From an uncultured Bacilli bacterium (GTDB lineage: Bacteria; Bacillota_I; Bacilli_A; RF39; UBA660), in the NCBI GenBank assembly GCA_947593955.1, contig CANQDV010000002.1:1-59294 (forward strand): 59,294 nucleotides of DNA, read 5' to 3'. Positions 1-23,799 of the stretch are shown here, piece after piece (position 1 is the first letter of the stretch; each line of letters begins with the position of its first letter). The notes below the pieces were generated by a model. It was not told the origin of the DNA, searched no databases, and saw only the letters and a list, made by a program, of their open reading frames with translations. A program made the position numbers and the translations under genes.

Positions 1-32
1 GAACTCGCAATTTAATTATAATACATTTTTTC

Positions 33-76
33 AAAAATAAAAAGACTATTAACAAATTTTACTTTGTCAACAGTCT
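33..76 (-). terminator. Intrinsic terminator downstream of pilin-like gene
   Basis: Minus-strand hairpin: 63-76 pairs with 43-56 (14 bp including two G-U pairs), followed by a U-rich run (complement of 33-42). Confidence 0.55.
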
Positions 77-107
77 GTGATGTCTTTATAGACATCGTTT
101 TTATTTG

Positions 108-2270
108 TTATTTTAAATTATAACTTGGACAATTTTTCCCAGTACATCCTTCTTTAGGAGAAAAATAATAATAACTATTTAACATACAAGTTTTAGCTTT
201 ATCATTCGGTTTGCCGTTAGATATAACATCTTCCTGAGTTCCTGAAACTGAATATACAGTCAAAACGTTCTTTGAACGATTTCCAGCTCTATCAACAGCA
301 TAAGTTTGGAATATACCACCATTATATATACTACATGTAGATGATCCCAAAGTAGTTGATCTATGCGTACTAGCTGTCTCTCTATAATCCCAATTATGAA
401 TTCCTACAGCATCAGAAGTTCCAGATCCGAAACGATGTAATGATGGTTCTTGAACACCACTTAAATTATCGTCATAGAATGTTTTGTTAGATGATGCAGT
501 ACCTAAACCATCCCATATTTTAAATGTATAACATGTAATAGATTCCTGTTTGTTCTTAAGAGCCGTTTCTCCCGCGCCACCTTTTTTCTTAGGATAAACA
601 ACTGTACCATTTTCCAAAACACAATATATATCAAATACGGTTTTACCAAGAGTACCGTTATTAGTATTATAACTATCGTATATATAATCTATAGAAAGAT
701 ATGGTGTATATGGTGGTGTCTTATCGATTTGTAAAAGCGTGGAACCTGTACTACAATTATTAAGATAATCACAAACTTTTATATAAATATTTCTTTTTTG
801 CTCATCCTTTATTAAGCTTGGTTTATAAGATGAAGTTGATGAATTAGTATACTGGTAATAAGTTTTATTAGAAGATGTACTGTAGCTATATGCATAATAT
901 TTTATTCCTGAACCATCTCTATCATTACCATTTAAAGTTAATTGTACATCTTTATTTGTCCAGTTTCCGTTCGTTGGATTTGTAATAGATAATGTAGGAG
1001 GATCAAGGTCTATTTTTACTTCACGTCTACAAGTATTCGTATTTCCGGCAGCATCAATTACTTTTCCTAAAATGACCTTCTTGCCACTTTCTTTTAAATC
1101 TAAGCTGGTACTTCCATAAACATAATCAGTTTCTTTTACTCTACTTTCATAACTTGATGAAGTACTATAAATAGCATATTTTGAAATACCACTACCTTCA
1201 TCACTTTTTGATAAGATAGCAGAAGTATTGCTTCCATACCATCCATTATAATCAGCCGATGCACTTCTTATTGCAAATGAACAAGTAGGTTTAGCTTTAT
1301 CAATAAACACATTAACTGGACAGCTCTTCTTATTTCCAGCATTATCTTCTATTGTAATTGTTCCTTTTTGGATTATCTTTCCTTCTTCAGCTGTAAACGT
1401 TTTAGTAAATTGTGTTTGTTTGCAACCACTACCACTATCACTACATCCAACTGTAATAGTTCTACTTCCATTAGTCCAAGTTGTGCTTTCACCAATTACC
1501 GTTCCACATGTTGGACTGATATTATCATCGGAATCTGGATTAACTGGTTTATCTGGCTCTTCTGGATCAGGTGTTTCCGGATCTGGATTATCTGGGTCAG
1601 GTCTATCTGGATCAGGATCTACTGGGTCAGGATCTTCCGGAGTAGGATTGCTTGGATCAGGATTTGTTGGATCAGTTGGGAAACAATTTTCTCCTGTACA
1701 AGGTTGATAATTACTATCCCAATTTAAAGCTTCCTGACAATCACCTTCTGTACTTTTGTATTTACTACAATATAAACAAACTTGATATTTTATATCCGAT
1801 AAATTATCTGTAGTATTTGACGCTATTACAAAACTATCACTACAAAATCCATCTCCCTCTGGATCTTTTATATTTTCACTATATTTACCATTTAACAATT
1901 GATCATAAGTTACCTTAACTTTCTCCCCAGTTAATGGAATTATACAATTTTCTGCATTATTATTAAAACAATCTATCATTAAGTTATTAGCTGCTCCGCT
2001 CAAATCATGTTTATAACTTTCATATGTTGCAGCTTTACTCTTAGTTATATATTTAGTAACCGATAAAGAAGCGAATGTCGTCAAAATACCTAAAATAATA
2101 ATAACACTTATTATTTCAATCAAAGTAAACCCTTTATTATCTTTTTTATTAATCTTTTTTTCAACATTTATATTTTTCTTTGTATTATTCTTATCCGTTT
2201 TAACATTAGGCTTATTTTTAGTTTTTAACTTTGATTTATTATCTTTGTTTTCACTTTTTTTATTACTCAT
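108..2270 (-). CDS. Large modular type IV pilin / pseudopilin-like surface protein (about 720 aa)
   Basis: ORF 108-2279; ATG at 2270 preferred (GGATAGGGTGA 6 nt upstream). Prepilin motif KG|FTLIE plus hydrophobic helix IISVIIILGILTTFASL follows a Lys/Asn-rich leader. Then a Pro-Asp linker and repeated Cys-containing Ig-like modules, each ending AGN..C..V.IDK.P. CTGxNC motif occurs twice. Confidence 0.75.
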   Translation of the reverse strand: MSNKKSENKDNKSKLKTKNKPNVKTDKNNTKKNINVEKKINKKDNKGFTLIEIISVIIILGILTTFASLSVTKYITKSKAATYESYKHDLSGAANNLMIDCFNNNAENCIIPLTGEKVKVTYDQLLNGKYSENIKDPEGDGFCSDSFVIASNTTDNLSDIKYQVCLYCSKYKSTEGDCQEALNWDSNYQPCTGENCFPTDPTNPDPSNPTPEDPDPVDPDPDRPDPDNPDPETPDPEEPDKPVNPDSDDNISPTCGTVIGESTTWTNGSRTITVGCSDSGSGCKQTQFTKTFTAEEGKIIQKGTITIEDNAGNKKSCPVNVFIDKAKPTCSFAIRSASADYNGWYGSNTSAILSKSDEGSGISKYAIYSTSSSYESRVKETDYVYGSTSLDLKESGKKVILGKVIDAAGNTNTCRREVKIDLDPPTLSITNPTNGNWTNKDVQLTLNGNDRDGSGIKYYAYSYSTSSNKTYYQYTNSSTSSYKPSLIKDEQKRNIYIKVCDYLNNCSTGSTLLQIDKTPPYTPYLSIDYIYDSYNTNNGTLGKTVFDIYCVLENGTVVYPKKKGGAGETALKNKQESITCYTFKIWDGLGTASSNKTFYDDNLSGVQEPSLHRFGSGTSDAVGIHNWDYRETASTHRSTTLGSSTCSIYNGGIFQTYAVDRAGNRSKNVLTVYSVSGTQEDVISNGKPNDKAKTCMLNSYYYFSPKEGCTGKNCPSYNLK
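1530..1679 (-). repeat. Low-complexity Pro/Asp linker-coding repeat inside the pilin-like gene
   Basis: Encodes PTDPTNPDPSNPTPEDPDPVDPDPDRPDPDNPDPETPDPEEPDKPVNPDS. The DNA is iterated GGATC(A/T)GG-like units, which create spurious Gly/Ser-rich ORFs on the opposite strand. Confidence 0.85.
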
Positions 2271-2299
2271 TACTATCACCCTATCCTAATTATAATAAC

Positions 2300-2308
2300 A
2301 TTATAACA
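2300..2308 (-). promoter_or_regulatory. Extended -10 promoter element (TGtTATAAT) for pilin-like gene
   Basis: Minus-strand TGTTATAAT about 30 nt upstream of ATG 2270, directly after the rpsR terminator. Confidence 0.45.
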
Positions 2309-2324
2309 TTTTTTTTAAATAATA

Positions 2325-2357
2325 AAAGAAAAAAGATACTTTTTATCAAAGTATCTT
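2325..2357 (-). terminator. Intrinsic terminator of rpsF-ssb-rpsR operon
   Basis: Minus-strand AAGAUACUUU-GAUA-AAAGUAUCUU hairpin beginning in the rpsR stop codon, followed by UUUUCUUUU. Confidence 0.7.
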
Positions 2358-3548: not shown

Positions 3549-5306
3549 TCATCTTAATAAATCAATAATATCTTTTTTCAAATATCTATTTAATGGTATT
3601 TTTATAATTAGGTAAATATATAATATGAAAATTAAATTAATCAATAATAATACAAAAACATTGATAAAAATATTAATACCCCAAGCAAATAATATTATTA
3701 TCGATAATAAAAAATATATTAAAAGTGCGACCAATAAGGAAACTAAGAAATTAGGAACATATTCTAAAATGATAAACCAACTAATATCATCTTTGTCAAA
3801 ATGAAATAATTGCAAGTAACCTATTTCTTTTTTTCGATAATATAATTCGAGACTAATTTGATTTGTTAAAAATAATAATGTCAGCATTGAAACTACAACT
3901 ATTATTATAAAACTTATTTGTGTTATTCCTATTACTTTCATGGAGATATTTGCTACTTCATTTTTATAAAAGAAATAAGAGGTACTGCCACTAAACATAT
4001 AATCAAATTCTGAATCACTATAAATATCCAGTAAATATTTACTATCGAAAACTACCATTTTATATTCTGAAGATCCTTCTTGACCAAATGTTTTTAGTTG
4101 ATTATAGTCTAAAAATACTACTTCTGTTGTACTCAAATCATTATAATATTTATTAAGATTTAAAATATCGTTTTTGCTAATTGATACGACACCACTTATT
4201 AAAAATTCTTTATTGTTTATTTTAATCTTTTTCCCTACTATATCTAGATACTTGCTACCATTAAAATTAATACCAGCAAAAAAATTATTAATTAAAACTT
4301 CATTATCACTTTTTGGCCAATTTCCAGCTACAATTAATTTTTGTAAATTGGTATATTCTTTTTTTAACAACGGATAAACTACAAAATTTTCTTCTTTATA
4401 TTGATAGCTATCATAAACTTCCGTTATTATATTTTGTAAATTATGTATGTACTTATCATTGATATCCAAAACATTATATGGAGTATCATTTAACTTATAA
4501 TTAATAAATTCTCTTTTAAAATTCAAATTAAAAGCTATAGCTAAAAAGGAAATAAGAAACATAAAAGATATAAATATTCGCATAAATAAACTTATTTTTT
4601 TTCTACTTTTAAAAGCATTCCTTATTATTTTCTTTTCGTTTGAATTCGTGCATAATTTTAATTCTTCTTTATTTTCATTAATTACTTTGGTTTTTATCTT
4701 TCCATAATCAATGTTTATTAAAATATCTGCTATATTATCAAAAATATCTTTATGAGTTGAAATAATAATTATCTTGTCTTTTTTATCAATTTTTTTTAGA
4801 AATTCTACAAAAATTATAGAATTTTGATAATCCAAATTTGATGTTGGTTCATCTAATATAAGTATTTTGTTATTATTCAATAAAGTTCTTATTAGTGATA
4901 CTCTTTGACGTTCACCACCGGATATTTTATTAGGATATTTATCTAATATGTCATAAATGCCAAATTGTTTTGATAAATCAATAATATGATCTTTGTCATT
5001 CTCTATTAATAACAAATTTTCAAGTATAGTTAATTTGCGATATAACAAACTTTTTTGTAACATATATCCAATGTTGTTCTTAAAGTTTTGTTTCTCTTTT
5101 TCATTTAACTTACTAATATCATTTTCATTTATTGTTACTTGACCTTCATAATTATTATCTAGACCACTAATTATGTTTAACAAAGTTGTTTTACCTGATC
5201 CACTAATTCCTTTAAGGACATATATATTACCCGCATATAGATTTAAACTTATGTTATCAAGAACTTTTGTATCATACGTTTTTGATAAATTCTTAATTCT
5301 AATCAT
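3549..5306 (-). CDS. MacB-type ABC transporter, fused ATPase + FtsX-like permease (second of pair)
   Basis: 585 aa. Walker A GISGSGKTT, signature ISGGERQR, Walker B ILILDEPTSNLD. Then TM1, a roughly 200-aa extracytoplasmic domain and 3 C-terminal TM helices. ATGA overlap with the upstream gene. Confidence 0.8.
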   Translation of the reverse strand: MIRIKNLSKTYDTKVLDNISLNLYAGNIYVLKGISGSGKTTLLNIISGLDNNYEGQVTINENDISKLNEKEKQNFKNNIGYMLQKSLLYRKLTILENLLLIENDKDHIIDLSKQFGIYDILDKYPNKISGGERQRVSLIRTLLNNNKILILDEPTSNLDYQNSIIFVEFLKKIDKKDKIIIISTHKDIFDNIADILINIDYGKIKTKVINENKEELKLCTNSNEKKIIRNAFKSRKKISLFMRIFISFMFLISFLAIAFNLNFKREFINYKLNDTPYNVLDINDKYIHNLQNIITEVYDSYQYKEENFVVYPLLKKEYTNLQKLIVAGNWPKSDNEVLINNFFAGINFNGSKYLDIVGKKIKINNKEFLISGVVSISKNDILNLNKYYNDLSTTEVVFLDYNQLKTFGQEGSSEYKMVVFDSKYLLDIYSDSEFDYMFSGSTSYFFYKNEVANISMKVIGITQISFIIIVVVSMLTLLFLTNQISLELYYRKKEIGYLQLFHFDKDDISWFIILEYVPNFLVSLLVALLIYFLLSIIILFAWGINIFINVFVLLLINLIFILYIYLIIKIPLNRYLKKDIIDLLR

Positions 5307-7177
5307 AGTAAATCATCTCCACCTTTTATGGCATTAATCCAGCCTGTTTTCTTTAATTTAATAGTTTCATACATCGTAAATATAACCGATAAAATGATTA
5401 AAAGTAAAAACAATAAAAGGGTATTTTTATAATCAATTAAAAATAAATCAAATTCTAAAAAGTTCATGCTATTAAAAATATTTAATAGAATTATAGAAGT
5501 AATAAACGATAATATAAATATTATGACCATTTGTAAAATCGATACTAACATATAACTTAACATAATATTTTTCCAACTGTAACCATAATAATTATATACT
5601 GATAAAATATGTTCGCGATATTTGTTTATTATAAACTGCATTTGGAAATAAAATATGATTACTATAAAAAAGGCAAAAATTATTAAAGGATAACTATAAT
5701 ATTGTAAAAACTCTATCATTTTAGCAAAATCTAAAAAACCAGCTTCCATTCCTAAAGGCATAATATTAGAGTCTTTATAATTATAAAATTTATATAAATC
5801 ATCTGTATTATCAAAAAAAGCAATCATATATACCGAATTATCACCAATTGCAGTTAAATTATTTAGTAATATTTCTTTATTCTTATATTTTTCTGTAAAT
5901 TTGCTATTAAGGTACTCATAATCATCTAAATTAAAAGAAGGATGCATTGCTTTGAGATATGGTGAATCGATATTGGGTTTTAAAATACCTACAATTCTAA
6001 ATTCATGTCCCCCATCGCTTAAGAGAATATCATATTCTTCGTTAATTAAATCTTCTAAATTATCACCTAATTTTTTTGCAACATTGTATCCTAAAATGAT
6101 ATCATTTTTATTTTCGTAATAAGAACCATAAAGTAACATATCTTCATAATTTGGAACTAAATTAACATCAAACGGAAGCATTAAAGCTGTAGTATTATAA
6201 TTTAAAAAAGTGGAATAATTATTTGCATTTCCGTTATATGGGAAAATATTATCTATCGCTTTATTACTTTGAAGATAACTATCACAATAATTATCTAAAT
6301 CACTACATACATATCTTACAAAGTTTATACCGTGTTTTTCAATTAAACCTTTCTCTATTTTTGTTTGGTAGTCAAAGCATGAATATAACAAAAGTAAAAT
6401 TACAACAAAAACAACCGCTAAATAAAATGACGATTTCTTCTCTCTATTTTTATAATAAATATTTTTAATCATATACTTAAATAAGAACTTATTTTTACTT
6501 TTCATAGCATTTGGTATAGTGCTTTTTTTGTTTGTCTGTACTTTGCTACATAAATTAGAAAAATCTATTACCTCGTCCGCTTGTTCTATCAGCTTTTGAT
6601 CGTGTGAAGCACAAATTATTAAAATGCTTTGTTTCATTTCATTTAATAAGTCAATTAATATTTTTTTGTTTTCAAAATCCAAAGACGAAGTCGGTTCGTC
6701 CATCAAAATTATTTCTTTTTTTTGCAATAGAGCTGAAATAATTGCTACTCTTTGTTGTTCCCCACCTGATAATTCATTTGGATAGCTGTTAATTTTATCT
6801 TCTAATTTAAATTTTTTTAAGTATTGGTTTATTATAATATTATCTTTAATGCCGGAACATAATTCCAAGTTCTCTTTTACTGTTAAATAGTCAACAAAAT
6901 AATTATTTTGAGTAATATATGATATATATTTTTTTACAAAAGAATAATCTACAATATTTTCATATGTTTTATCATATATAGTTACTTTACCACTATCAAA
7001 AGAGCTAGCTCCACTAATGATATTTAACAAAGTTGTTTTACCACTACCGCTAGCTCCATACAAAACGTATAATCCCTTCTTTTCGAAATCATAAGAGAAA
7101 TTATTAATAACTACATTTTTATCGTATTTTTTACTAATTTTCTGTAGTATCATAGATATTTCCATTGAGTCCTGCAT
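5303..7177 (-). CDS. MacB-type ABC transporter, fused ATPase + FtsX-like permease (first of pair)
   Basis: ORF 5303-7192 (TTG). ATG 7177 has a GGGGAT RBS; ATG 7165 and 7153 are also possible. Walker A GASGSGKTT, LSGGEQQR, ILMDEPTSSLD. Same TM / extracytoplasmic domain / 3-TM layout. Confidence 0.8.
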   Translation of the reverse strand: MQDSMEISMILQKISKKYDKNVVINNFSYDFEKKGLYVLYGASGSGKTTLLNIISGASSFDSGKVTIYDKTYENIVDYSFVKKYISYITQNNYFVDYLTVKENLELCSGIKDNIIINQYLKKFKLEDKINSYPNELSGGEQQRVAIISALLQKKEIILMDEPTSSLDFENKKILIDLLNEMKQSILIICASHDQKLIEQADEVIDFSNLCSKVQTNKKSTIPNAMKSKNKFLFKYMIKNIYYKNREKKSSFYLAVVFVVILLLLYSCFDYQTKIEKGLIEKHGINFVRYVCSDLDNYCDSYLQSNKAIDNIFPYNGNANNYSTFLNYNTTALMLPFDVNLVPNYEDMLLYGSYYENKNDIILGYNVAKKLGDNLEDLINEEYDILLSDGGHEFRIVGILKPNIDSPYLKAMHPSFNLDDYEYLNSKFTEKYKNKEILLNNLTAIGDNSVYMIAFFDNTDDLYKFYNYKDSNIMPLGMEAGFLDFAKMIEFLQYYSYPLIIFAFFIVIIFYFQMQFIINKYREHILSVYNYYGYSWKNIMLSYMLVSILQMVIIFILSFITSIILLNIFNSMNFLEFDLFLIDYKNTLLLFLLLIILSVIFTMYETIKLKKTGWINAIKGGDDLL

Positions 7178-8069
7178 ATTTATCCCCAACAAATCTCTTA
7201 ACTAGTTCATAAACTCTCTCATAAACTTCACCAGTTAAACCAAATTCTTCTTCAAGATTTACCTCTTGACTTTCAACTACATAGTTGCCCATTTTTTGTA
7301 AATTTGCATATATTTCTTTTTGTTCTTGGGTAGCCTTATTACTAGCAACAAGATCACTTAAATAATCTCCGTTGTCATATAATAAATCAATTAAAACAGT
7401 ATAAATTCCAATTGATTTTGAAAAATAAACCCCAATATTTACCTTATATCCATTTTTAGAATAATCATGGCGCATAGTACAATCTGACAAATTAAATTTT
7501 GTAATCCAAGTAGTATTAAATTCTTGTTCAACTGCTTGGTTATATAAATCTAAAATCTCTTGTTTGGAAAAATTGTATATTGTAAGTTTATCCAAATCTT
7601 TAATATCAATTTTAGAATTAAATTGATTTTTATCAAAAAATTCATCTATTACGCGAACCTCGTCACGTTCCATAACACCGTTCTTACTATGATCAGAAAT
7701 AGAGAGAGAAGGCATTCCTGGTGTCCTTATTACAACTCCACCTATATCATAACCATAAGTGTTATACCCATCAAGAGTTTCATATTTTAAATTGCATCCA
7801 CCAAAAAGGTTTTTTGTTACTTCTCGATTTTTATCTACTGTAGTAATTAAAAATGTATAATACCAGCCATCACCTCTATCCTGAATAACCAGTTTTTCAG
7901 CATAGTTTTTCCAAGCATCTGGATCAACTTCATCAACAATTTTATCTTTTAAACTATTTTTGTTTTTATTGTTAAAATATAAAAACACAACTATTACAAC
8001 CAGTAAAAATAAAATTAATAAAAATACATATTTGATATTCTTTTTCATTTTAGATATCATTCCTTTCAT
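7134..8069 (-). CDS. Membrane-anchored hypothetical protein, first gene of ABC operon
   Basis: 311 aa; N-terminal anchor YVFLLILFLLVVIVVFLYF, then a soluble domain with no motif I recognise. Its 3' end overlaps the start of the next ABC gene. The true start may be ATG 8048. Confidence 0.6.
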   Translation of the reverse strand: MKGMISKMKKNIKYVFLLILFLLVVIVVFLYFNNKNKNSLKDKIVDEVDPDAWKNYAEKLVIQDRGDGWYYTFLITTVDKNREVTKNLFGGCNLKYETLDGYNTYGYDIGGVVIRTPGMPSLSISDHSKNGVMERDEVRVIDEFFDKNQFNSKIDIKDLDKLTIYNFSKQEILDLYNQAVEQEFNTTWITKFNLSDCTMRHDYSKNGYKVNIGVYFSKSIGIYTVLIDLLYDNGDYLSDLVASNKATQEQKEIYANLQKMGNYVVESQEVNLEEEFGLTGEVYERVYELVKRFVGDKYAGLNGNIYDTTEN

Positions 8070-8265
8070 TACTTTTACAGCATATAATATAAATGTTTTC
8101 TTCCGTTGTTAGCCTTAGTATAAGGCAATGCTTTGCTTTATACAAGCAAAAAAAGCAACACATTGTGTAAAGTTTACATAAATACAAGTAAAAGTAACAT
8201 ATTTTTCCTAATTTTAATAATAAAAGGTACCGTTATAAAGACTTATTTGTCTTCAAAAAAATATT

Positions 8266-8299
8266 TAAAAAAAAGAAACAAATTATCTCTTTTGTTTCT
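8266..8299 (-). terminator. Intrinsic terminator of ychF
   Basis: Minus-strand AGAAACAAA-AGAGAUAA-UUUGUUUCU hairpin overlapping the TAG stop, followed by U8. Confidence 0.7.
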
Positions 8300-9398
8300 A
8301 AACATTAAATCTAAAATAACAAATATCGCCATCTTGCATAATGTAATCTTTTCCTTCAAGACGAGCTCGACCATTTTCTTTTACTTTTTGTTCATTACCA
8401 TATTTTATTAAATCTTCGTAACTCATAACTTCTGCTTTAATAAATCCTTTTTCAAAATCCGTATGAATAATACCTGCACACTTTTTGGCATTCATTCCTT
8501 TTTTAAAAGTCCATGCTCGTACTTCGTCACTTCCTACGGTAAAATATGTAGCAAGTCCCAATAAATCATAAGTATCTTTAATTAATTGATCTAGTCCACT
8601 TTCTTTTACTCCCGCTACATTTAGCATTTCTTTTTTTTCGTCATCATTTAATTCGCTAAGTTCCGCTTCTAATTTAGCACACATCTTTATTACTTTAGCA
8701 TGCTCATTTTTAGCATATTCTCTAACCTTTTTTACATAATCATTATCTTCTTTAGCCACATTTTCTTCATTTACGTTAGCTAAATAAATAATTGGTTTTA
8801 TTGTAAGAAAAGAAAAATTGTTTAATAGTTGTAATTCTTCTTCCGAAAAATGTACTATACGTAATGGAATATTTTTTTCAAGATTTTCTTTAGCTTTTTT
8901 TAATACTTCTAATTCAACTAATGCTTCTTTATCACGATTGGTTTCAGCTTTTTTCTTTATTTTATCAATTCTAGCATTTAATATTTCCAAATCTGATAAA
9001 GATAACTCTAAATTAATTATTTCAATATCTCTTATTGGATCAATAGTGTTTTCAACATGAATAATATTATTATCGTCAAAACACCTTACTACTTCTACAA
9101 CAGCATCAACTTCTCTAATGTGAGATAAAAATTTATTTCCCAGTCCTTCACCTAAATTAGCACCTTTTACTAATCCAGCAATATCTATAAATTCATAACT
9201 AGTCGCAATTAATCGTTCTGGCTTATACAATTCTTCTAACTTCACTAATCTTTCATCTGGTACTGTAACAATTCCCACATTAGGATCTATTGTTGCGAAA
9301 GGATAATTGGCTGCTAAAATATTTTTTTTGGTAATTGCGTTAAACAAAGTTGATTTTCCAACATTAGGTAAACCAACAATACCTGCTTTTAATCCCAT
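8298..9398 (-). CDS. ychF: Ribosome-binding ATPase YchF
   Basis: 366 aa; GIVGLPNVGKSTLFNA P-loop, coiled-coil insert, C-terminal TGS-like domain ending DGDICYFRFNV. Confidence 0.95.
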   Translation of the reverse strand: MGLKAGIVGLPNVGKSTLFNAITKKNILAANYPFATIDPNVGIVTVPDERLVKLEELYKPERLIATSYEFIDIAGLVKGANLGEGLGNKFLSHIREVDAVVEVVRCFDDNNIIHVENTIDPIRDIEIINLELSLSDLEILNARIDKIKKKAETNRDKEALVELEVLKKAKENLEKNIPLRIVHFSEEELQLLNNFSFLTIKPIIYLANVNEENVAKEDNDYVKKVREYAKNEHAKVIKMCAKLEAELSELNDDEKKEMLNVAGVKESGLDQLIKDTYDLLGLATYFTVGSDEVRAWTFKKGMNAKKCAGIIHTDFEKGFIKAEVMSYEDLIKYGNEQKVKENGRARLEGKDYIMQDGDICYFRFNV

Positions 9399-9407
9399 AC
9401 AAACCTC

Positions 9408-10994
9408 CTATAAAGTAGGGAAAACTCCTGGACCAATTGGTAAACCTATTAAATACCACCCTACAATTAATAAAATCCAAGATAGACCCATTATAATACA
9501 ACATGGCATAACATATGATATGGCTGCTCTTATTGTAATTGGCTCTTTCTCCTTATTATATATGTTTAGGTATCCTAAGTAAATAATAAAATATGCAAGC
9601 AATGGTGTAATTCCTTTAGTAATTGAGTCTCCTGCCCTTAAAATAAATTGAGCAAATTGAGGAGCAATATTAGACTGCATCATTAATGGTACAACCACTG
9701 GCGAAAGAATTGTCCATTTGCTTACTTGTGATGGTAAAACTAAATTACATATTAAAATTACAAAAAGAACAAGTAAGATTAAAGGAATGCCAGAAAAAGA
9801 TAAATCTCTTATTAGATTGGCCCCTAAAGCAGTTATTACAACGCCAATATTACTTTCTTCAAATACTGCAATAAATTGTGAAGCAAAAAATAATAAAACT
9901 ATTAAACTACCTGTATTTTTAGTATAATCAGAAGCTTTTTCAATTAATTTTTTATCACTTTTTAACGTCTTTGCTCCCACACCATAAGCAATACCTGTTA
10001 TTAAAAAGAATAATGATACCATATAAGTAAATCCATCTTGAAAATAGGAATTTGGTCCAAACAATTGTCTCAAATATGTACTTTCGCTCATATCTAGTAG
10101 CATTCCAGATCCTGGTAAATTAGGAATAATCATATAAATAAATAATAAAATCATTAAACTTCCAACAATGTAAGTGTATTTTAATCCTTTTTTTTCATTA
10201 ATTTCAAGAGCAATTTTTTGCTGCTCTTCACTTGGTATTAATAATTTTTCAAGATCTTGTGTTTCTTCTAAAGAAAGTTTATATTTACCCAATTTTTTAG
10301 CAACTATATTCTCTATAACAATAGTACCTATAATCGCTAAAATTATAGAAAAAGCAATCATTATAAATAAATTAGAAGTTAAACTAACATGAAATGTAGG
10401 ATCAATTAATCTAGAACTTGAAGTAGTTAATGGTATCAAATTTACTTCCATTGAACCTACAAAAAATGTAGCTCCACTACCAAATGCCACTCCTGTAAAC
10501 GCTGTAATTATTCCTAATAAAGGACTTCTACCATTAGCTAAAAATAACAAAGCTGCAAGTGGTATTAATACGACATATCCAACCTCATTAATCAAGCTTG
10601 AAAAAATAGCAACCAACAATAATATAAAAGTTAACTTTTTATTGCTAATATTTAAGGTTACTCGTTTAATAAATGTATCTATTAAACCAGATGCATAAGC
10701 AACAGATAATCCTATTAAAGATATTAATAAACTAACTAATGGACCAAACGATGCAAAATTACTAGCAGCATTACTTATAATATATTTTATACCATCATAG
10801 TTTAATAAATTTTTCACACTGACAAAGACAGATTCTAACTCTAAGTTTTCAGGTCTTACCCTAGTATAATTAGCTTGAAAATGAAACAAAGATAAAATCC
10901 AGCTCAAAATTAAAACGCCAAAAGTTAATAATATAAATGCCGTAATTGGATGTAGCGAAAACTTTCTTAATCGCATCTTTTTATTTTTACTCAT
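9408..10994 (-). CDS. AbgT-family (p-aminobenzoyl-glutamate type) transporter
   Basis: 528 aa polytopic protein. C-terminus WYLIGLPIGPGVFPTL closely matches the E. coli AbgT C-terminus WYLVGLPIGPGIYPRL (recalled from memory). Confidence 0.85.
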   Translation of the reverse strand: MSKNKKMRLRKFSLHPITAFILLTFGVLILSWILSLFHFQANYTRVRPENLELESVFVSVKNLLNYDGIKYIISNAASNFASFGPLVSLLISLIGLSVAYASGLIDTFIKRVTLNISNKKLTFILLLVAIFSSLINEVGYVVLIPLAALLFLANGRSPLLGIITAFTGVAFGSGATFFVGSMEVNLIPLTTSSSRLIDPTFHVSLTSNLFIMIAFSIILAIIGTIVIENIVAKKLGKYKLSLEETQDLEKLLIPSEEQQKIALEINEKKGLKYTYIVGSLMILLFIYMIIPNLPGSGMLLDMSESTYLRQLFGPNSYFQDGFTYMVSLFFLITGIAYGVGAKTLKSDKKLIEKASDYTKNTGSLIVLLFFASQFIAVFEESNIGVVITALGANLIRDLSFSGIPLILLVLFVILICNLVLPSQVSKWTILSPVVVPLMMQSNIAPQFAQFILRAGDSITKGITPLLAYFIIYLGYLNIYNKEKEPITIRAAISYVMPCCIIMGLSWILLIVGWYLIGLPIGPGVFPTL

Positions 10995-11002
10995 AAATTC
11001 TC

Positions 11003-11188
11003 CTAATTAATAATCTTTTTTATTTTTTTGTTAAATTCAATTCTAGGAATCATAACAATACGTCCACAATTAGTACATTTTATTTTTATATCTGCACCAA
11101 TTCTAACTATTTCCCATTTATTTTCACCACACGGATGTCCTTTTTTCATTTCAACAATTGTTCCAACAGAATAGTTTTTTTCGTCCAT
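11003..11188 (-). CDS. DUF951 family small protein (YyzM-like)
   Basis: 61 aa; VGTIVEMKKGHPCG..W.IVR.GADIKIKC..CGR.V motif. Same position next to ychF as in Bacillus. Confidence 0.75.
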   Translation of the reverse strand: MDEKNYSVGTIVEMKKGHPCGENKWEIVRIGADIKIKCTNCGRIVMIPRIEFNKKIKKIIN

Positions 11189-11219
11189 ATATCATTATCC
11201 TTCCTTTTAGAAAAAATTA

Positions 11220-12101
11220 TTATCTTTCTGTTAAATTCAATATTTCTAATATTCTATTTAAATCATTATTATTAACAAATGTAATTTCAATATGTTTACC
11301 CTTAATTTTTACCTTTGTTCCTAATTTATCACACAATTGTTCTTCTAAATCATGATATTCGTCTTTTTTATGGTTTTCTACATGATGCTTTTTTGATATT
11401 TCTTTTGACTTAGAAATATCTTCCAAATCTCTCACATTTAAATTTTCATCAACTATTTTTTTGGCTAAATCGATTATTTTATTTTTTTCTTCCATTTTGC
11501 TTAATATTCTAGCATGACTCATAGAAATTTTGTTTTCATTAATCATTTCTTTTACTTCTTCAGGTAATGATAATAACCCTAACATATTAGTAATATGACT
11601 TCTGCTTTTACCAAGTTTATTAGCAAGTTCTTCCTGAGTAATTGATAATTTTTCTACCAATTTTTTATATGCAGTAGCTTCTTCTATAGAGTTTAAGTTT
11701 TCTCGTTGCAAATTTTCAATTAGAGCAATCTCCATCATTTCTTCATCAGAAAAATTTCTAATAATGGCAGGAATTTTGGTAAGTCCCGCAATTGTTGAAG
11801 CCTTAACACGTCGCTCACCTGCAATTATTTCATATCCTTTGATACTTTTCTTTATTATAATTGGTTGAAATACACCATGTTCTTTAATAGATGCTGCTAA
11901 CTCATTTAGCTTTTCTTCATCAAAAACTTTCCTTGGTTGATAAGGATTAGGTCTTAATTCACTTATTTCTACTTCAATTATTTCTTCTTTTGGAGTAGAT
12001 TCAACTATTTGTTTTTCAAAACTATTAAAATCTAATTGTTCACTATTAAACAATTCTTCTAAGCCTTTACCAAGTGCTCTTCTTTTAGTTTGTTGTTCCA
12101 T
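11220..12101 (-). CDS. parB: Chromosome partitioning protein ParB/Spo0J
   Basis: ORF 11220-12110 (TTG); ATG 12101 preferred. N-terminal LGKGLEELF, PNPYQPRK box, CTP-pocket GERRVKAS, HTH GKSRSHITNMLGLL (Spo0J-like Arg). Overlaps the soj 3' end. Confidence 0.9.
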   Translation of the reverse strand: MEQQTKRRALGKGLEELFNSEQLDFNSFEKQIVESTPKEEIIEVEISELRPNPYQPRKVFDEEKLNELAASIKEHGVFQPIIIKKSIKGYEIIAGERRVKASTIAGLTKIPAIIRNFSDEEMMEIALIENLQRENLNSIEEATAYKKLVEKLSITQEELANKLGKSRSHITNMLGLLSLPEEVKEMINENKISMSHARILSKMEEKNKIIDLAKKIVDENLNVRDLEDISKSKEISKKHHVENHKKDEYHDLEEQLCDKLGTKVKIKGKHIEITFVNNNDLNRILEILNLTER

Positions 12102-23352: not shown

Positions 23353-23799
23353 ATGAAATATGAAATCAATGAAGAAACAATGGCTATAATACCTATTGGC
23401 TTAAACAAAACGAAAGTTGTAGAATTAAGAAAGGAATACACAATACCTTCATCAACATTTCAAATAATGGAAGAAAACTGTGAATATTATGGCAGTACAT
23501 TTGATGGTAGAATAAAAGCAGCTCAAAAAATACTTAGTTTTAGTTACAAAATACCATTAATTGTCGAGGAGTCTTCTCAAATAATTTTCTTTCCTACAAA
23601 GTCATCTTCAGCAAATGATTGTGCTTGGATTAATCACAATTTTGTGGAAAAAAGAATAAAAAATGGTAAAAATACAAAAGTTGTATTTCAAAATGGTTCA
23701 GAATATGAATTTAAAATTTCAAAGCTTTCTTTTGAAAATCAATTATTAAGAGCTGGCATGCTTGAATCTACACTTTCAAAAAGATTAAATAAAAAATAA
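23353..23799 (+). CDS. comK: ComK-family competence transcription factor-like protein
   Basis: 148 aa. Blocks align with B. subtilis ComK as recalled: YYGSTFDGRIKA vs FFGSSYAGRKAG; KIPLIVEESSQIIFFPTKSSSANDCAWINHNFV vs KPPIMVDPSNQIFLFPTLSSTRPQCGWISHVHV; SFENQLLRAGML vs SFENQVYRTAWL. Confidence 0.75.
   Translation: MKYEINEETMAIIPIGLNKTKVVELRKEYTIPSSTFQIMEENCEYYGSTFDGRIKAAQKILSFSYKIPLIVEESSQIIFFPTKSSSANDCAWINHNFVEKRIKNGKNTKVVFQNGSEYEFKISKLSFENQLLRAGMLESTLSKRLNKK

Follow-up and report, generated by a model that had tools for sequence, protein, structure and literature searches.

A putative modular type IV pilin with an adhesin-like stalk and an extended lysine-rich leader in a reduced-genome Bacilli bacterium of the rabbit gut

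Introduction

Modular type IV pilins form an already known class, and their general design has been described (PMC8179133). Raynaud et al. (2021) surveyed ~1,200 of them, and the class includes Streptococcus sanguinis PilB, which carries a vWA domain, and PilC, which carries a lectin domain (PMC8179133; PMC9934059). For CofB, a type IVb (T4b) minor pilin of enterotoxigenic Escherichia coli, a location at the filament tip has been proposed (PMC8179133). Here we describe a gene on the minus strand of contig CANQDV010000002.1 (assembly GCA_947593955.1), from an uncultured rabbit-gut Bacilli bacterium; the whole stretch analysed, 59,294 nt long, is called the window. The gene encodes a protein of 720 amino acids (aa; P0001) that we read, with a probability of about 0.7, as a modular minor type IV pilin displaying an adhesin-like stalk. 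The genome is a metagenome-assembled genome (MAG); its 108 contigs total 1.41 Mb, at 78% completeness and 26% GC.

Like PilB and PilC of S. sanguinis, the protein joins a class III signal to a small pilin module on which non-pilus domains are grafted through a linker. Its host is likewise a monoderm, and an adhesive role with display on a filament is predicted in both cases. It differs from them in its cargo, which consists of three Cys-containing immunoglobulin (Ig)-like domains of sub-threshold Pfam similarity and a 200-aa domain instead of vWA or lectin domains, and in its linker, a 50-residue Pro/Asp stretch instead of a short loop. Furthermore, its leader has 47 aa, against 7 in PilB (PMC8179133), and its gene stands alone and not in a pil operon. 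With CofB it shares a pilin module, a flexible linker and beta-rich extra domains (PMC8179133), but CofB is a proteobacterial T4b pilin with another domain set, and no sequence relation between the two was found. Residues 250-520 superpose as tandem Ig-like beta-sandwiches on the stalks of giant adhesins, namely the BIg domains of SiiE (2yn3/2yn5), GhpA (9flw and others), an ice adhesin (4p99) and 6xi3. Those proteins, in contrast, are type I secretion substrates or other non-pilin proteins with an identity of only 12-18%, whereas the domains described here have conserved pairs of Cys and are attached to a pilin.

The leader recalls T4b pilins in being far longer than the 5-10 residues typical of type IVa (T4a) pilins. 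Leaders of T4b pilins have ~15-30 aa. The leader found here differs from these in its length of 47 aa and its polybasic, low-complexity composition, and the mature N-terminus is a T4a-type Phe. T4b pilins are restricted to Proteobacteria (PMC10191384). Assignment to that class was considered and rejected: the leader is long, but Phe stands at position +1 and the protein comes from a low-GC Bacilli MAG. What sets the protein apart within the known class is a recurrent extended polybasic leader, together with the swapping of cargo at a syntenic locus where the head is conserved.

A predicted pilin carrying an Ig-like stalk

The protein carries a class III signal, K46-G47/F48-T-L-I-E52 (the slash marks the predicted cleavage site), with Glu at +5, preceded by NKKDNK and followed by the hydrophobic stretch IISVIIILGILTTFASLSV. 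Hidden Markov model searches place this motif, which had been recognised from the sequence beforehand, above the cut-offs of both N-terminal methylation models, with 25.9 bits against a gathering cut-off of 21.2 for PF07963 (N_methyl) and 26.5 bits against 16.3 for TIGR02532. Compared singly, the protein matches solved pilins weakly (E 0.004-0.5). With a profile built from 63 family members, 21 solved sequences of pilins or pseudopilins are matched at E 4e-14 to 0.02, with Geobacter PilA-N (4e-14) and S. sanguinis PilE1 (5e-12) at the top and PilA/PilE proteins of Pseudomonas, Neisseria, Myxococcus and Thermus down to 1e-5; these matches span the leader and alpha-1 only. Equivalog models for particular subunits were not reached, whether for GspG and GspH (TIGR01710, 25.7 against 88.85; TIGR01708, 23.1 against 80; N-terminal 30-50 residues only) or for ComG proteins (ComGD, 16.3 against 70; ComGE, 15.6 against 49; ComGF, 11 against 80).

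We modelled the full-length protein with AlphaFold2 from a 69-sequence alignment (mean predicted local distance difference test, pLDDT, 73). Residues 1-45, in the leader, are disordered in the model, and are followed by a 55-residue alpha-1 helix (residues 50-104) and strands at 117-121, 147-152 and 160-165, with a pLDDT of 82-96. A model of the head only (residues 48-200) kept this topology unchanged, with a pLDDT of 86.5 and a predicted template-modelling score of 0.73. A small Cys-containing head had been expected; the pilin module (residues 48-190) comprises a predicted beta-sheet head and six Cys. The N-terminal half of the helix, alpha-1N, is closely similar to that of a 175-aa small pilin encoded on contig C10 of the same genome.

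The head closes with a CTGENC motif, and CTGKNC at residues 709-714 closes the C-terminus, as had been pointed out. Between them lies first the linker, called a 50-residue PDP linker in the original prediction and placed here at residues ~197-250. It is part of a 56-residue stretch (196-251) with 19 Pro and 15 Asp, its DNA consists of imperfect 15/30-nt tandem repeats, and AlphaFold2 leaves residues 190-243 disordered. There follow three predicted beta-sandwich domains across residues 250-520, with a pLDDT >90. The ending AGN..C..V.ID..P, already noticed as common to the modules, occurs at residues 310-328, 406-425 and 501-520. The four Cys of module 1 are nearly invariant, and the unit corresponding to this module is repeated up to ~ten times in relatives. 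The whole protein contains 22 Cys, 3.1% of its residues compared with 1.2% genome-wide.

Foldseek matches of the full model were dominated by tandem Ig-like domains, with adhesin stalks at E 1e-9 to 1e-6. They include Salmonella SiiE (1e-9), fragments of Aureispira GhpA, 6xi3, a Marinomonas ice adhesin, FdeC and an S-layer protein. Likewise, the family profile matches the Lap-type adhesin 6xi3 at 1e-4. A Pfam search with the stalk gave nothing above threshold, and the Ig-like assignment finds there only sub-threshold Big-like, HYR and DUF7743 matches. BLASTP self-comparison detected no internal repeats. In hhalign comparisons modules 1-3 are linked at 99% probability with family profiles and at 74-93% with orthologue-only profiles, the latter giving 74% and 93% for module 2 against modules 1 and 3, respectively. 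These profile comparisons suggest that the three modules are distantly related to one another.

At least three, and probably four, Ig-like modules had been predicted from the sequence. Three are modelled with confidence; the supposed fourth corresponds to a different domain of 200 aa (residues 521-720) that is modelled at low confidence. An hhalign link between module 3 and this C-terminal domain (94%) was discarded because repeats of relatives had been placed arbitrarily under the query in both alignments. A word-index search with residues 521-720 returned only the protein itself, and three homologues of the domain were found in all (P0005, P0092, P0099). Both the Ig-like module and the C-terminal domain lie outside the coverage of current domain databases. 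With a pilin module, three Ig-like domains that match adhesin stalks and a separate 200-aa C-terminal domain, the protein belongs to the modular type IV pilins.

Assembly machinery in the genome

A genome search for counterparts of pilD/comC, pilB/comGA and pilC/comGB, proposed together with the original prediction, found all three functions. The prepilin peptidase (C6:11369-12130; PF01478, 50.1 bits against 26.5) has the four-Cys methylase loop CxxC...CxxC and adjoins a platform protein with two T2SSF domains (C6:9936-11357). An extension-type ATPase, C21:10303-11856 (-), scores 408 bits with T2SSE, and 481 and 439 bits with the GspE and PilB models, both under the equivalog cut-offs. The N-terminal domains that PilB and GspE have are missing from it, its alignments beginning at model positions 106 and 179, respectively, and it ends in a Glu/Lys-rich tail of ~130 residues. 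This is the only GspE/PilB-type ATPase found, and its gene is flanked by two minor-pilin-like genes. Contig C10 encodes two small GFTLIE pilins, among them the one of 175 aa, and C64:3530-6060 (+) encodes a second giant pilin, of >843 aa, that runs off the contig end and combines another head type with Listeria-Bacteroides (Flg_new-like) repeats. Two Tad-like sets are present on C1 and C12.

A side observation concerns a 780-aa paralogue at C5:18610-20952 (-), which has a pilin-like head with the degenerate signal KKG/FPIRD, without Glu5, followed by a Pro/Gln-rich linker and five Big-like modules. This paralogue may be a pilin turned plain membrane-anchored surface protein.

The comK-like regulator reported earlier in the window is a ComK homologue at 23353-23799 (+) (PF06338, 142 bits), lying between dnaN and recF in the origin block dnaA-dnaN-comK-recF-gyrB-gyrA, and ComEC is encoded at C6:22960-23712. 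It is distinctive of this organism that its reduced genome combines ComK and ComEC with an assembly set that is minimal and scattered. Only one PilB/PilC/PilD-type set was found in the MAG besides ComK and ComEC; in reduced-genome gut bacteria one and the same filament might therefore take up DNA and also display swappable adhesin pilins.

In the mechanism that we propose, cleavage, filament incorporation, position in the filament and adhesion are all predicted steps. The class III signal would take the prepilin into the membrane with the 47-residue polybasic leader remaining in the cytoplasm, and the bifunctional prepilin peptidase of C6 would cut after Gly47. The mature alpha-1, beginning Phe48...Glu52, would then be built into a type IV filament by the PilB/GspE-type ATPase (C21) and the PilC-type platform (C6), with the small pilins of C10 forming the bulk of the filament. 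The head would carry the ~50-residue Pro/Asp spacer and, as a stalk, three Ig-like domains presumed to contain disulfides. By analogy with adhesins, this stalk would hold out the C-terminal domain of 200 residues, whose most likely target is a ligand on other cells, on food particles or on host mucus. For reduced-genome gut bacteria of this kind (genomes of the lineage measure 0.7-1.5 Mb), contact with other cells or with surfaces of the host is probably a necessity, and pili are a likely means of it.

The extended leader

Including Gly47, the leader has 47 residues, of which 17 are Lys and 11 Asn, with a net charge of +12; genome averages are 9.5% Lys and 7.9% Asn. Its DNA contains 12-13-nt duplications detected by Tandem Repeats Finder (TRF). 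The earlier statement that this Lys/Asn-rich region holds no internal start is borne out by direct reading of the sequence, which shows no in-frame ATG, GTG or TTG between Met1 and Gly47, and by a Shine-Dalgarno site at the far ATG.

We counted leader lengths in 188 family members, those with a located motif. Leaders are shorter than 15 residues in 160 of them and measure 29-85 residues, mostly lysine-rich, in 12. Within the closest head clade (>50% identity) half the members reach a leader length of >=24 residues, and a second, distant group of relatives has leaders of 59-85 residues. The leaders of two tandem orthologues in L012, a MAG from the rabbit gut, measure 65 and 47 residues; both genes lack an internal canonical start, and a strong Shine-Dalgarno site, AAGGGGTGAT or ACGGAGGTG, marks the far ATG. 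A literature search found no published account of such long lysine-rich prepilin leaders; reviews term the major-pilin leaders of S. sanguinis "very long".

The leader meets the positive-inside rule. Most likely it grew by duplication of A-rich DNA, as a low-complexity extension tolerated in a peptide that stays cytoplasmic and is removed by cleavage. We are doubtful that it acts as a functional pro-region of the giant pilins of this lineage, and equally doubtful of the related possibility of a single filament with two functions. Such a pro-region could keep a huge prepilin insertion-competent with its N-terminus inside, or time its processing by the peptidase, and if functional would widen the known range of prepilin peptidase substrates.

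Relatives and exchange of cargo

The protein had been called an orphan, which did not hold. A word-index search returned 89 homologues, mostly of 600-1250 aa with N_methyl and from gut MAGs, and an exhaustive search returned 3375 representative clusters at E <= 1e-3, 233 of them at E <= 1e-30; moreover, the genome itself holds further giant pilins. Genome matches are mostly MAGs labelled "uncultured Bacilli bacterium" from rabbit, human, goat and sheep. When 61 genera of the same family were searched, 29 genomes had a match to the head, some of the matches lying in open frames >500 aa. One homologue, P0014, is named 'type II secretion system protein' by NCBI, a generic name. Throughout the family Gly-1, Phe+1 and Glu5 are strictly kept, and Gly-Phe-Thr is nearly invariant.

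In two other genomes, L012 and L013, the gene occupies the same site, after rpsF-ssb-rpsR. At this shared locus L013 encodes a head 59% identical to ours with a 9-residue leader and Flg_new-type repeats. The rabbit MAG L012 has two giant pilins in tandem after rpsF-ssb-rpsR (L012:5968-8064 and 8236-11553), with almost identical heads. A Pro-rich spacer is present in L012, interspersed with four PPC[VI]G[DK][ED]C motifs that resemble CTGENC and CTGKNC, and the Pro/Asp spacer is missing from the closest orthologues, P0005, P0007 and P0008. A further relative, P0099, joins a head of the C64 type to modules 2 and 3 and the C-terminal domain of the 720-aa protein. In other relatives giant pilin genes stand amid housekeeping genes, sometimes in tandem. 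These comparisons show that cargo is exchanged on a conserved pilin head at the syntenic rpsF-ssb-rpsR locus. A pilin "carrier" at a fixed site with exchanged cargo modules would allow the specificity of adhesion to be changed in a simple way.

The contig that forms the window ends 107 bp downstream of the pilin gene, and beyond this end a second gene of the kind seen in L012 may lie.

Alternative readings

Several observations weigh against a modular pilin. A Foldseek search of the Protein Data Bank (PDB) with the head-only model gave no significant match (best E 4.5), so that the case for a pilin fold consists of the predicted topology and a sequence-profile homology confined to the N-terminal helix. 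The structural check on alpha-1 that had been suggested gave a predicted helix and beta-sheet head with no significant fold match; a PilA chimera at rank 11 (E 6.2) was not counted as evidence. Pro22 of the 175-aa C10 pilin is missing from the giant pilin. No pilus gene adjoins the pilin gene, which is alone at its locus, and none of the RNA runs searched holds it. In this 78%-complete MAG PilM is represented by one weak match under the cut-off, and a PilT-type ATPase was not found. The C-terminal domain has no Pfam or PDB sequence match. The structure prediction proposed for residues 250-720 was successful for 250-520 and of low confidence for 521-720, and because this last domain is unmodelled and without known relatives, an adhesive role is suggested by analogy. 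The isolation of the gene would also suit an adhesin that is anchored in the membrane, spans the wall and never becomes part of a polymer, its class III signal, cleaved or not, being an N-terminal anchor only. The Pro/Asp linker and the Ig-like stalk would then reach through the peptidoglycan, so that the C-terminal domain is exposed on the cell surface, as in class III signal proteins that form no filament. A Pro-rich spacer right after a membrane-proximal head resembles Gram-positive wall-spanning regions, penicillin-binding proteins encoded in the genome indicate that the organism has a cell wall, and the degenerate signal of the C5 paralogue looks like a plain anchor. However, a plain anchor would not need the strictly kept Gly-1, Phe+1 and Glu5 or an alpha-1N so near that of the small pilins. 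Moreover, the closest orthologues do without the spacer, and profile homology points to polymerising pilins. We consider such an anchored adhesin unlikely and favour a modular pilin displayed on a pilus or pseudopilus, as first proposed; the motif scores, the family-profile matches to pilins, the modelled helix and head, the adhesin-like modules and the machinery in the genome all argue for it, and display itself is predicted from them.

Two further alternatives concern the 5' end of the gene. Translation might start further downstream, at ATT (Ile40), ATA (Ile34) or TTG (Leu50), making the long leader an artefact of annotation. The public gene call P0002 (window 111-2123 (-), 671 aa, aligning to residues 50-720) does start at the TTG of Leu50, the sole nearby alternative canonical start, which lies within the signal motif. 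A start at ATT-40 would leave a conventional leader of 7 residues, and a majority of family members have leaders <15 aa. But a start at Leu50 removes the nearly invariant Gly-Phe-Thr of the family, so the P0002 start is a mis-call that hides the pilin signal; as P0002 begins inside GFTLIE, the deposited protein has no class III signal, and it has no Pfam domain either. Neither ATT-40 nor ATA-34 is preceded by a Shine-Dalgarno site, whereas GGGTGAT and TATAAT stand directly before the ATG at 2270. Lysine-rich leaders of 29-85 aa recur in the twelve family members counted above, and the two tandem genes of L012 point the same way. An artefact is thus improbable. Even less credible, to the point of being nearly discounted, is slipped-strand phase variation turning the gene on and off at two A7 tracts in the leader, which had been raised as a possibility. 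Two A7 runs do lie within the first 115 nt of the coding sequence, but A7/T7 runs occur at 1.7 per kb genome-wide and the gene, with 2 in 2.16 kb, is therefore not enriched for them. Contigs of two independent samples, X4 spanning both tracts and X1 one, show no difference in tract length, and no indels at the tracts are listed in contigs from an independent gut sample, at a depth of ~4x and with the reservation that contigs hide rare variants; two raw-read runs do not hold the strain.

Gene and flanking signals

The 720-aa protein is encoded, as originally stated, by a single long open reading frame (ORF) from the ATG at 2270 to a stop codon at 108-110. The coordinates of the features are collected in Table 1.

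Table 1. Features of the pilin gene and its flanks (window coordinates; all positions refer to the forward strand)
Feature	Position	Strand	Basis
Modular prepilin coding sequence, 720 aa	111..2270	-	ORF and translation
Leader, residues 1-47, ending in Gly47, the predicted prepilin peptidase site	2130..2270	-	sequence, AlphaFold2, composition
Predicted pilin module, residues 48-190: FTLIE N-terminus with Glu5, alpha-1, beta-sheet head, six Cys	1701..2129	-	PF07963, TIGR02532, AlphaFold2, family profile
CTGENC mini-motif, residues 191-196	1683..1700	-	sequence; CxGxxC recurs at the C-terminus and in linkers of relatives
Acidic Pro/Asp-rich linker, residues 197-250, predicted disordered	1521..1682	-	AlphaFold2, TRF, composition
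Ig-like module 1, residues 251-328, four conserved Cys	1287..1520	-	AlphaFold2, pLDDT ~97
Ig-like module 2, residues 329-425	996..1286	-	AlphaFold2, pLDDT 85-98
Ig-like module 3, residues 426-520	711..995	-	AlphaFold2, pLDDT 93-97; weak Big_7 and Glucodextran_B matches
C-terminal domain, residues 521-720, ending in CTGKNC, presumed binding (cargo) module	111..710	-	AlphaFold2, mostly pLDDT <50
Shine-Dalgarno site GGGTGAT, 4 nt before ATG	2275..2281	-	direct sequence reading
Promoter-like site TTAAAA, spacer 18 nt, TATAAT; overlapping TG-extended variant	2289..2318	-	consensus scan, pattern match only
Weak terminator-like hairpin over the rpsR stop codon, 10-bp stem then U-rich tail	2333..2357	-	RNA fold
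Intrinsic terminator, 14-bp stem then TTTTTATTTTT	33..76	-	terminator scan and RNA fold; part of contig-end repeat

The genes rpsF-ssb-rpsR lie upstream of the pilin gene, which stands alone behind them as had been described. A hairpin at the rpsR stop codon (-9.7 kcal/mol, z-score -2.6) divides it from the rpsF-ssb-rpsR unit, and given this hairpin with its U-rich tail the pilin gene is probably transcribed on its own, as a separate unit. TATAAT, with a weak -35 element, lies 19 nt 5' of the ATG (upstream DNA ...TGTTATAATGTTATTATAATTAGGATAGGGTGATAGTA-ATG), and GGGTGAT holds six consecutive bases of the Shine-Dalgarno consensus. The gene had been credited with an extended -10 promoter and a terminator of its own. 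The promoter, including its TG-extended variant, is recovered as a pattern match. The terminator, with its hairpin and tail at 76..43, is real, its region folding at -26 kcal/mol with a z-score of -6.3, but it belongs to a repeat found at the ends of at least seven contigs. The only match to a ComK box (AAAA-N5-TTTT) upstream of the gene is the rpsR terminator stem; it was dismissed as a chance pattern at 26% GC.

The repeat that includes the terminator is ~75 bp long and consists of the terminator hairpin followed by a TATAAT-like promoter. It occurs at window positions 3-77 and at C19:1-75, C20:1-78, C44:12-89, C62:9-74, C45:10480-10564 and C13:27837-27902, which puts it at the outermost tips of no fewer than seven contigs, with the assembly stopping just past it. 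Metagenome-contig depth over the repeat is ~40x that over the pilin gene. As the repeat lies at so many contig ends, the assembly is probably broken by a repeated unit that comes after it, such as a mobile element or an operon for rRNA or tRNA. On the other side of the locus, just upstream of rpsF, two adjoining genes at window positions 3549-7192 (-) both start with an ABC-transporter ATPase domain, and the one at 3549-5306 also ends in an FtsX-type permease domain.

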